A stretch of 42,922 bases of DNA from a virus (lineage: Duplodnaviria; Heunggongvirae; Uroviricota; Caudoviricetes): IMG/VR virus record IMGVR_UViG_2728369185_000014; one strand, written 5' to 3'. A program made the position numbers and the translations under genes. The first letter of the stretch is position 1; each line of letters opens with the position of its first letter. Shown here piece after piece: positions 26,497-28,297 of the stretch. The notes below the pieces were generated by a model that saw only the letters and a program-made list of their open reading frames with translations, ran no database searches and was not told the origin of the DNA.

Positions 26497-26699
26497 CGCG
26501 ACAGGAAGAACTTGCCGCTGCCCGTGCGGCACTGCATGACCTGATGACAGGTAAACGGGTGGCAACAGTACAGAAAGACGGACGAAGGGTGAAGTTTACG
26601 GCCACTTCCGTGTCTGACCTGAAAAAATATATTGCAGAGCTGGAAGTGCAGACCGGCATGACACAGCGACGCAGGGGACCTGCAGTATTTTATGTATGA
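26493..26699 (+). CDS. W: Head-tail joining protein W
   Basis: 68 aa, matching lambda gpW. Confidence 0.9.
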
Positions 26700-28297
26700 A
26701 AACGCCCACCATTCCCACCCTACTGGGACCGGACGGCATGACATCGCTGCGCGAATATGCCGGTTATCACGGCGGTGGCAGCGGATTTGGTGGGCAGTTG
26801 CGGGCGTGGAATCCACCGAGTGAAAGTGTGGATGCAGCCCTGCTGCCCAACTTTACCCGTGGCAATGCCCGCGCGGACGATCTGGTACGCAATAACGGCT
26901 ATGCTGCCAACGCCATCCAGCTGCATCAGGATCATATCGTCGGGTCTTTTTTCCGGCTCAGTCATCGCCCAAGCTGGCGCTATCTGGGCATCGGGGAGGA
27001 AGAAGCCCGTGCCTTTTCCCGCGAGGTTGAAGCGGCATGGAAAGAGTTTGCCGAGGACGACTGTTGCTGCATTGACGTTGAGCGAAAACGCACGTTCACC
27101 ATGATGATTCGGGAAGGTGTGGCCATGCATGCCTTTAACGGTGAACTGTTCGTTCAGGCCACCTGAGATACCAGCCCGTCGCGACTGTTCCGGACACAGT
27201 TCCGGATGGTCAGTCCGAAGCGTATCAGCAACCCGAACAATACCGGCGACAGCCGGAACTGCCGTGCCGGTGTGCAGATTAATGACAGCGGCGCGGCGCT
27301 GGGATATTACGTCAGCGAGGACGGCTATCCTGGCTGGATGCCGCAGAAATGGACATGGATACCCCGTGAGTTACCCGGCGGGCGCGCCTCGTTCATTCAC
27401 GTTTTTGAACCCGTGGAGGACGGACAGACCCGCGGTGCAAATGTGTTTTACAGCGTGATGGAGCAGATGAAGATGCTCGACACGCTGCAGAACACGCAGC
27501 TGCAGAGCGCCATTGTGAAGGCGATGTATGCCGCCACCATTGAGAGTGAGCTGGATACGCAGTCAGCGATGGATTTTATTCTGGGTGCGAACAGTCAGGA
27601 GCAGCGGGAAAGGCTGACGGGCTGGATTGGTGAAATTGCCGCGTATTACGCCGCAGCACCGGTCCGTCTGGGAGGCGCAAAAGTGCCGCACCTGATGCCG
27701 GGTGACTCACTGAACCTGCAGACGGCTCAGGACACGGATAACGGCTACTCCGTGTTTGAGCAGTCACTGCTGCGGTATATCGCTGCCGGACTGGGTGTCT
27801 CGTATGAGCAGCTTTCCCGGAATTACGCCCAGATGAGCTACTCCACGGCACGGGCCAGCGCGAACGAGTCGTGGGCGCACTTTATGGGGCGGCGAAAATT
27901 CGTCGCATCCCGTCAGGCGAGCCAGATGTTTCTGTGCTGGCTGGAAGAGGCCATCGTTCGCCGCGTGGTGACGTTACCTTCAAAAGCGCGCTTCAGTTTT
28001 CAGGAAGCCCGCAGTGCCTGGGGGAACTGCGACTGGATAGGCTCCGGTCGTATGGCCATCGATGGTCTGAAAGAAGTTCAGGAAGCGGTGATGCTGATAG
28101 AAGCCGGACTGAGCACCTACGAGAAAGAGTGCGCAAAACGCGGCGACGACTATCAGGAAATTTTTGCCCAGCAGGTCCGTGAAACGATGGAGCGCCGCGC
28201 GGCCGGTCTTAAACCGCCCGCCTGGGCGGCTGCGGCATTTGAATCCGGGCTGCGACAATCAACAGAGGAGGAGGAGAGTGACAGCAGAGCTGCGTAA
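26696..28297 (+). pseudogene. B: Portal protein B, interrupted by an in-frame TGA at 27164..27166
   Basis: Two track ORFs (26696..27166 and 27206..28297) are in the same frame and together span 534 codons, the size of lambda B; a single TGA sits where lambda has Trp (...FVQAT*DTS...). Confidence 0.85.

Follow-up and report, generated by a model that had tools for sequence, protein, structure and literature searches.

A clone-specific opal codon in the lambda-type portal gene of an Escherichia coli prophage that carries a satellite in its capsid gene

The portal gene B of a lambdoid prophage of Escherichia coli carries an in-frame TGA in place of the tryptophan codon at position 157. We consider it very probable that this is a nonsense pseudogene of one clone, produced by the ordinary decay of prophage late genes and unrelated to the satellite that is inserted in capsid gene E. 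The gene was found in a window of 42,922 nt, by which we mean the whole stretch of DNA analysed here (IMG/VR virus record IMGVR_UViG_2728369185_000014). The history that we propose is short: one G-to-A transition would have turned Trp157 (TGG) into opal TGA in the prophage portal gene, the mutation would have arisen once, and one E. coli clone would now inherit it. The portal stop is neither surprising nor mechanistically new; the pseudogene status is already in public annotation and the helper/satellite arrangement has already been described.

Frame, family and product of the portal gene

The lambda-B-type portal gene occupies positions 26696..28297 on the plus strand of the window and consists of 533 codons and a stop, with one internal TGA. 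When 26696-28297 is translated, 534 codons are read, of which codon 157 is the sole internal stop, followed at the end by the natural one; from the ATG at 26696 to the TGA at 27164-27166 the frame runs for 468 nt, or 156 codons. The opal codon (27164..27166, plus strand) differs from TGG by the G-to-A change at 27166. In the list of open reading frames the gene appears as a truncated N-terminal ORF of 156 aa (26696..27166, plus strand), which covers part of the first wing segment only, and an in-frame downstream ORF of 363 aa (27206..28297, plus strand), which covers the rest of the wing, the stem, the clip and the crown. A reading made from the sequence only had described B in just this way, as two ORFs in one frame split by the TGA, and both the translation and the ORF list bear this out. 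It had also given TGG (Trp) as the lambda codon at this place, which is what J02459 contains, and that the rest of the gene matches a 533-aa portal; indeed 528 of the 533 residues are those of gpB.

An alignment with lambda B spans all 1602 nt of the gene at 97.6% DNA identity, and several lambda-like phages reach 98-98.6%. The encoded protein differs from gpB at five of 533 positions (S37A, W157*, S161P, Y395H and K527E), that is, by four amino-acid substitutions besides the stop. For an intact sister allele the match to PDB 8k38, 'Portal protein B', extends across residues 1-533 (E = 0), and PF05136 (Phage_portal_2) is matched by both halves of the interrupted gene. The locus is the conserved slot between W and C in the order Nu1-A-W-B-C-D-E. 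The frame that would encode wing, stem, clip and crown is broken by the stop at codon 157, and by this break the gene is to be classed as a pseudogene of the lambda-family portal family and not as a working member of it. The closest known counterparts are gpB (PDB 8k38 and related entries) and the classical lambda Bam alleles, with which it shares the identity of the gene, its W-B-C position and its length. The Bam alleles are laboratory amber mutants, whereas here a natural opal allele has become fixed in a wild E. coli clone, and the window offers no suppressor tRNA. Of the single-base substitutions that the portal gene could undergo, about 3.8% create a stop codon, so the occurrence of one such change in a prophage lineage is unremarkable and presents no statistical anomaly.

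Codon 157 is TGG in every close relative compared (lambda, NRG857c, 2016C-3878 and FDAARGOS_1268), and Trp157 is also kept in the UTI89-type portal, which is 61% identical. The nearest intact alleles, those of 2016C-3878, FDAARGOS_1268 and many others, are 99.9% identical to the window's gene and differ from it at two bases, 27166 (G there, hence TGG) and 28080. The latter position lies downstream of the stop and was considered as a second derived change that would be a sign of relaxed selection. This candidate was rejected: the window has CAG (Gln462) at 28080, as do lambda and NRG857c, while the sister alleles have changed to CGG. With CAG ancestral, the TGA is the sole derived change in the window's portal allele.

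According to the cryo-EM structure of gpB, the wing comprises residues 24-249 and 368-452, the stem 250-279 and 343-367, the clip 280-342 and the crown 453-511 (PMC10721106). Set against these limits, the 156-residue product stops inside the first wing segment and is without stem, clip, tunnel loop and crown. It holds none of the channel-forming or adaptor-binding parts. With translation halting after residue 156, no dodecameric portal would be expected from this gene. It is established in lambda genetics that lambda needs gpB for packaging-competent proheads, and proheads that contain a portal should not arise when B is cut short by a stop codon. By analogy with this requirement, the prophage alone would be unable to build packaging-competent proheads; we infer the loss of portal function from the sequence.

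Distribution and age of the TGA allele

The whole gene, TGA included, is present at 100% identity in 3 of 5,426 complete E. coli genomes, namely GN06489 and GN06758, both bloodstream isolates from Durham, and N68, from CSF. Probes of 81 nt and 33 nt centred on the TGA gave exact matches in these three of the 5,426 genomes and in no others. The PGAP/RefSeq label of the gene in GN06489 and N68 is "phage portal protein, pseudo, internal stop". Codon 157 is TGA as well in seven of seven further NCBI chromosomes or contigs compared, and the codon is identical across the aligned loci L001, L003 and L005-L011. The exact 156-aa ORF was found on 239 public contigs (from NCBI, ENA, JGI and Logan), and the index lists 519 blocks of the collection for it. 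The 363-aa downstream ORF, which public assemblies list as a gene of its own, is identical on 197 contigs and bears source names from strains KTE59 and KTE65.

This distribution decides the question of whether the TGA is an artefact. The window is a scaffolded draft with N runs, and a base-calling error had been among the explanations first offered for the codon. Its presence in three complete RefSeq genomes, which come from no fewer than two projects, and in the seven other NCBI assemblies, together with the 239 contigs from four sources and the KTE59 and KTE65 names on the downstream ORF, leads us to reject base-calling error; the site (ACC TGA GAT) is, moreover, no homopolymer. That the true base is G, through an error of sequencing or assembly of any kind, is highly improbable. 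By these matches the TGA is an inherited allele of a frequently sampled E. coli clone.

A recent nonsense mutation was another of the explanations offered. Nonsense it is, being the only derived change, and 'recent' holds only in part: far from being confined to one isolate, the allele has gone to fixation in a clone that is widely sampled. At the same time, with the 363-aa ORF unchanged on 197 contigs, the lineage is too young for decay downstream of the stop to confirm relaxed selection. The TGA can serve as a clean, datable marker of the clone or lineage.

The portal gene has been broken in another lineage as well. A different lambdoid prophage, with a portal gene 97.9% identical, carries a +1 G frameshift (GTGTGG to GTGTGGG) at about codon 142 and keeps TGG at codon 157. 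This allele was found on 210 contigs, with or without a satellite in E (L020-L022, locus 6001-7603). An independent +1 G lesion in the same gene indicates that portal inactivation is a recurrent form of prophage decay.

Read-through, recoding and re-initiation

Low-level read-through of UGA was the third of the explanations first offered. It would be a generic leakiness and no programmed event, and it is the sole residual activity to be expected from the interrupted gene: Trp-tRNA-Trp would yield wild-type gpB in amounts of about one percent or less. Because read-through restores the wild-type residue, some leakiness is intrinsic to the allele, though it is probably slight at most. In a K-12 reporter, where Trp-tRNA-Trp competes with RF2, UGA read-through amounts to ∼2% at 37 °C and to 4% at 25 °C (PMC10570021). 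Twelve gpB subunits suffice per head, so a trace of portal function may persist. The base at +4 is G, which is not the leakiest UGA context, and the RF2 of natural isolates is usually more efficient than that of K-12.

These figures could be taken further, to a stop that is functionally meaningful: the gene would be attenuated, not dead, and read-through by tRNA-Trp would feed a low-frequency spread of helper or satellite. Such a role would draw on the reporter values of about 2-4% (PMC10570021), on tryptophan being the wild-type residue, on the small number of subunits that a head requires and on the unaltered state of the downstream ORF on its 197 contigs. An unaltered downstream sequence is equally expected in a young clone, and the assembly of a dodecamer would be expected to fall steeply with subunit concentration. 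The sequence holds no specialisation for read-through, the stretch downstream of the codon being the same in the relatives with TGG. We regard a meaningful leaky stop as quite unlikely, and the decay of a late gene as the better account.

In favour of programmed recoding, by selenocysteine insertion or by an evolved read-through signal, the 64 nt 3′ of the UGA fold better than shuffled sequences (z = −2.8). The same hairpin is present, identical, in the TGG relatives and so has not co-evolved with the UGA, and the codon itself, which 5,423 of 5,426 complete genomes lack, is not conserved among homologues. At the gathering score, Rfam has no recoding family in or near the portal gene; the single match in the window is the cIII thermoregulator at 5037-5095. 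The apical stem, which begins 22 nt 3′ of the UGA, carries the loop CACAGU, and neither this spacing nor this loop resembles that of the E. coli fdhF SECIS. A SECIS-type element at fixed spacing was thus rejected, on the Rfam result and on the spacing and loop, and recoding of either type has next to no probability. A suppressor tRNA encoded in the prophage was rejected as well: ARAGORN found no tRNA gene, and hence no opal-suppressor tRNA, within the window.

The two ORFs might instead encode a split portal, in which the 156-aa fragment and a 363-aa fragment re-initiated at the ATG at 27206 work together. That ATG is in frame, 40 nt past the stop, and gene callers list the ORF that it opens. 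The sequence upstream of it, GCGACTGTTCCGGACACAGTTCCGGATG, contains no recognisable Shine-Dalgarno sequence, and wing residues 157-170 would go missing from the pair. In the other lineage the gene is broken at a different place, by the frameshift at about codon 142, which fits random lesions. We know of no split portal in the lambda family. A working split portal is very improbable, and we retain the view that the gene is a nonsense pseudogene.

The helper prophage and the satellite in capsid gene E

Apart from the portal gene, the head genes of the prophage are in good order. The helper Nu1 small terminase (24051..24596, PF07471), the large terminase A (24571..26496), the head-tail joining protein W (26493..26699), the C/Nu3 gene for the S49 protease and scaffold (28278..29597) and the head decoration gene D (29607..29939) are all intact and lie on the plus strand; FI and FII are intact in the TGA prophage as well. 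The helper cos region, also on the plus strand, is at 23830..23902 and contains lambda cosN, GGGCGGCGACCT. No irreversible lesion other than the portal stop was seen among them. Complete genomes place the TGA prophage at the argU/DLP12 site, adjoining intD, and it carries the DLP12 markers emrE, ybcK, ybcN, rusA, ylcG and nohD. With DLP12, a defective prophage at argU, it shares the site, these marker genes and the decay of a late gene by point mutation; in comparison with the DLP12 of K-12 it is far more complete, with all head and tail genes present.

[quoted passage not shown] The 5′ fragment of E (29995..30239, plus strand) ends at the attL core, the 10-bp sequence AGCCGAAGCA at 30230-30239; the same core is repeated as attR at 41118-41127, at the start of the 3′ fragment of E (41118..41908, plus strand). 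Joining the two cores in silico rebuilds an E of 341 aa that is identical to that of a relative. The satellite encodes an integrase, AlpA, an Icd-like protein, a DUF4222 protein, a D5_N primase, SSB, an E-like capsid protein (42% identical to the helper E), a D-like decoration protein, a second AlpA-type HTH protein and a Nu1-like TerS. It also has its own cosN copy: a plus-strand cos region at 39377..39449, ∼92% identical to the helper cos, lies just upstream of the satellite terS.

Pfam matches in the satellite are to integrase, AlpA, D5_N primase, SSB, Phage_cap_E, HDPD and Nu1, which fits the HE-PICI gene order of int, AlpA, a Bro/immunity zone, primase and a late zone. The element lies inside a helper late gene and in the same orientation, at codon ∼80 of E, and shows a 10-bp identity block. 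For the core 'agccgaagca' and for the attL sequence there are matching entries in the supplement of PMC10111431. By these features the satellite belongs to the published HE-PICI type with site E:Phage_cap_E:80, a group of 201 reported instances; composites named "58.R" are entered with this core too (PMC10111431). It shares with this type the size of ∼11 kb, the orientation and place in E, the core, the int-AlpA-primase order, an E-like capsid gene of its own and the cos copy. It differs from the model element 11capE in having a Nu1-like terS, which 11capE does not (PMC10111431), and its membership in the 11capE integrase clade is suggested by the shared att site only. Many HE-PICI helpers look truncated, their satellites "abandoned" (Tommasini, Mageeney and Williams 2023, PMC10111431). 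In comparison with the helpers of that study, the one described here has a point nonsense mutation in the portal gene; the word 'portal' has no occurrences in the main text of the paper. No plaques were obtained from the model HE-PICI strain of the same study, NRG857c (PMC10111431), and we considered the TGA as the cause. The NRG857c portal gene (1195784-1197385) is annotated as intact and has TGG, so the failure to form plaques has another cause and this candidate was rejected.

A related satellite occupies the same site in FDAARGOS_1268, where opposite-strand genes for a HEPN-domain and a DUF262-domain protein replace terS and a small ORF (locus 23534-25250). This change in the late zone looks like a swap of defence-type cargo.

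The stop codon and the satellite are not linked. Of 5,426 complete E. coli genomes, 172 have the junction between E and the satellite; three of these carry the TGA and 169 do not. FDAARGOS_1268 has the same prophage and a related satellite in E together with an intact portal gene. Conversely, OZ038951.1 (L008) has the TGA and an intact E with no satellite, the flanks being 100% identical to the window (locus 13300-14325). A genome with the TGA and no satellite shows that the nonsense mutation and the insertion of the satellite are independent events, and a tie between them was rejected on these counts. The state of OZ038951.1 is compatible with a recent precise excision or a recent gain of the satellite.

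The same counts bear on the suggestion that the nonsense allele was positively selected, through 'domestication' of the prophage at the level of the host or through an advantage to the satellite, rather than carried by neutral drift. For selection speak the fixation of the allele in a clinical clone that is often sampled and the fact that the second, independent portal lesion is also common. Hitch-hiking in a successful clone accounts for the frequency equally well. From what is known of lambda, loss of the portal would block neither excision nor replication nor lysis, and an induced cell would not be spared; the satellite, for its part, needs a portal and would gain nothing, and 169 of the 172 genomes with the satellite in E do without the TGA. 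Selection of the allele appears quite unlikely to us, and neutral decay of the portal gene remains the preferred reading.

The sequence-only reading had further held that the satellite would depend on a helper portal. The satellite was found to lack genes for a portal, a large terminase and a protease, so this part stands; what qualifies it is that GN06489 also has a second lambdoid prophage whose head genes are intact. This prophage, of the UTI89 icd type, is at 2883102-2902694, and its Nu1, A, W, portal, C, D, E and FI genes are all undamaged. The portal has 61% aa identity to the defective one, the cos is 87-91% identical to the cos of the satellite and of the helper, and E carries AGCCGAAACA in place of the satellite's att core. 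By sequence it is a candidate for an alternative helper.

For annotation and for experiments, the argU-site helper would not be expected to make proheads of its own, by analogy with lambda. Mobilisation of the satellite would then rest on traces of read-through or on another lambdoid phage in the cell. We have also thought of the opal codon as a 'throttle' that is tolerated or maintained: a trace of portal made by read-through would keep the composite near-silent and still allow rare particles, or the icd-site prophage would supply the portal to the satellite. We hold this to be very unlikely; if true, it would mean a near-silent phage in a successful extraintestinal E. coli clone, with rare release of helper or satellite particles.

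The window itself is composite. A 10-N run at 12291-12300 joins a UTI89-like early region of an icd-site prophage, which occupies 1-12290 and ends in ninB, to the middle of gene P, and P of the argU-type prophage is partly duplicated across this join. Other N runs are at 2660-2771, 18412-18421 and 23041-23192, and represent 3 nt and 100 nt of GN06489. The apparent single prophage probably combines two from the same genome, and the portal gene lies in the second, argU-type, prophage of the scaffold. The differing left arm of the window had raised the possibility of an old TGA allele that had since recombined; this was rejected, as the switch falls exactly at the 10-N gap and is most likely an assembly join.

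Several minor features of the two prophages were recorded. A 66-nt remnant of an HTH (xis-like) gene adjoins intD in GN06489 (2752-2817 of the locus) and in 2016C-3878 (9914-9979 of the locus); the prophage family at the argU site may already have been impaired in excision before the portal mutation. Between the Q antiterminator gene and the holin gene, the minus strand (18780-21172) carries genes for a 404-aa hypothetical protein and a 391-aa NA37 nucleoid-associated protein. This slot is the usual moron position in lambdoid phages. In the nin region, beside the ybcK recombinase gene and emrE, positions 15300-16751 encode proteins that bear the labels 'P22AR C-terminal domain' and 'BstA C-terminal domain' in relatives, a possible cargo of the abortive-infection type. 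The Rfam match in the icd-type early region, Lambda_thermo (the cIII thermoregulator), is on the minus strand and scores 88.5 bits.
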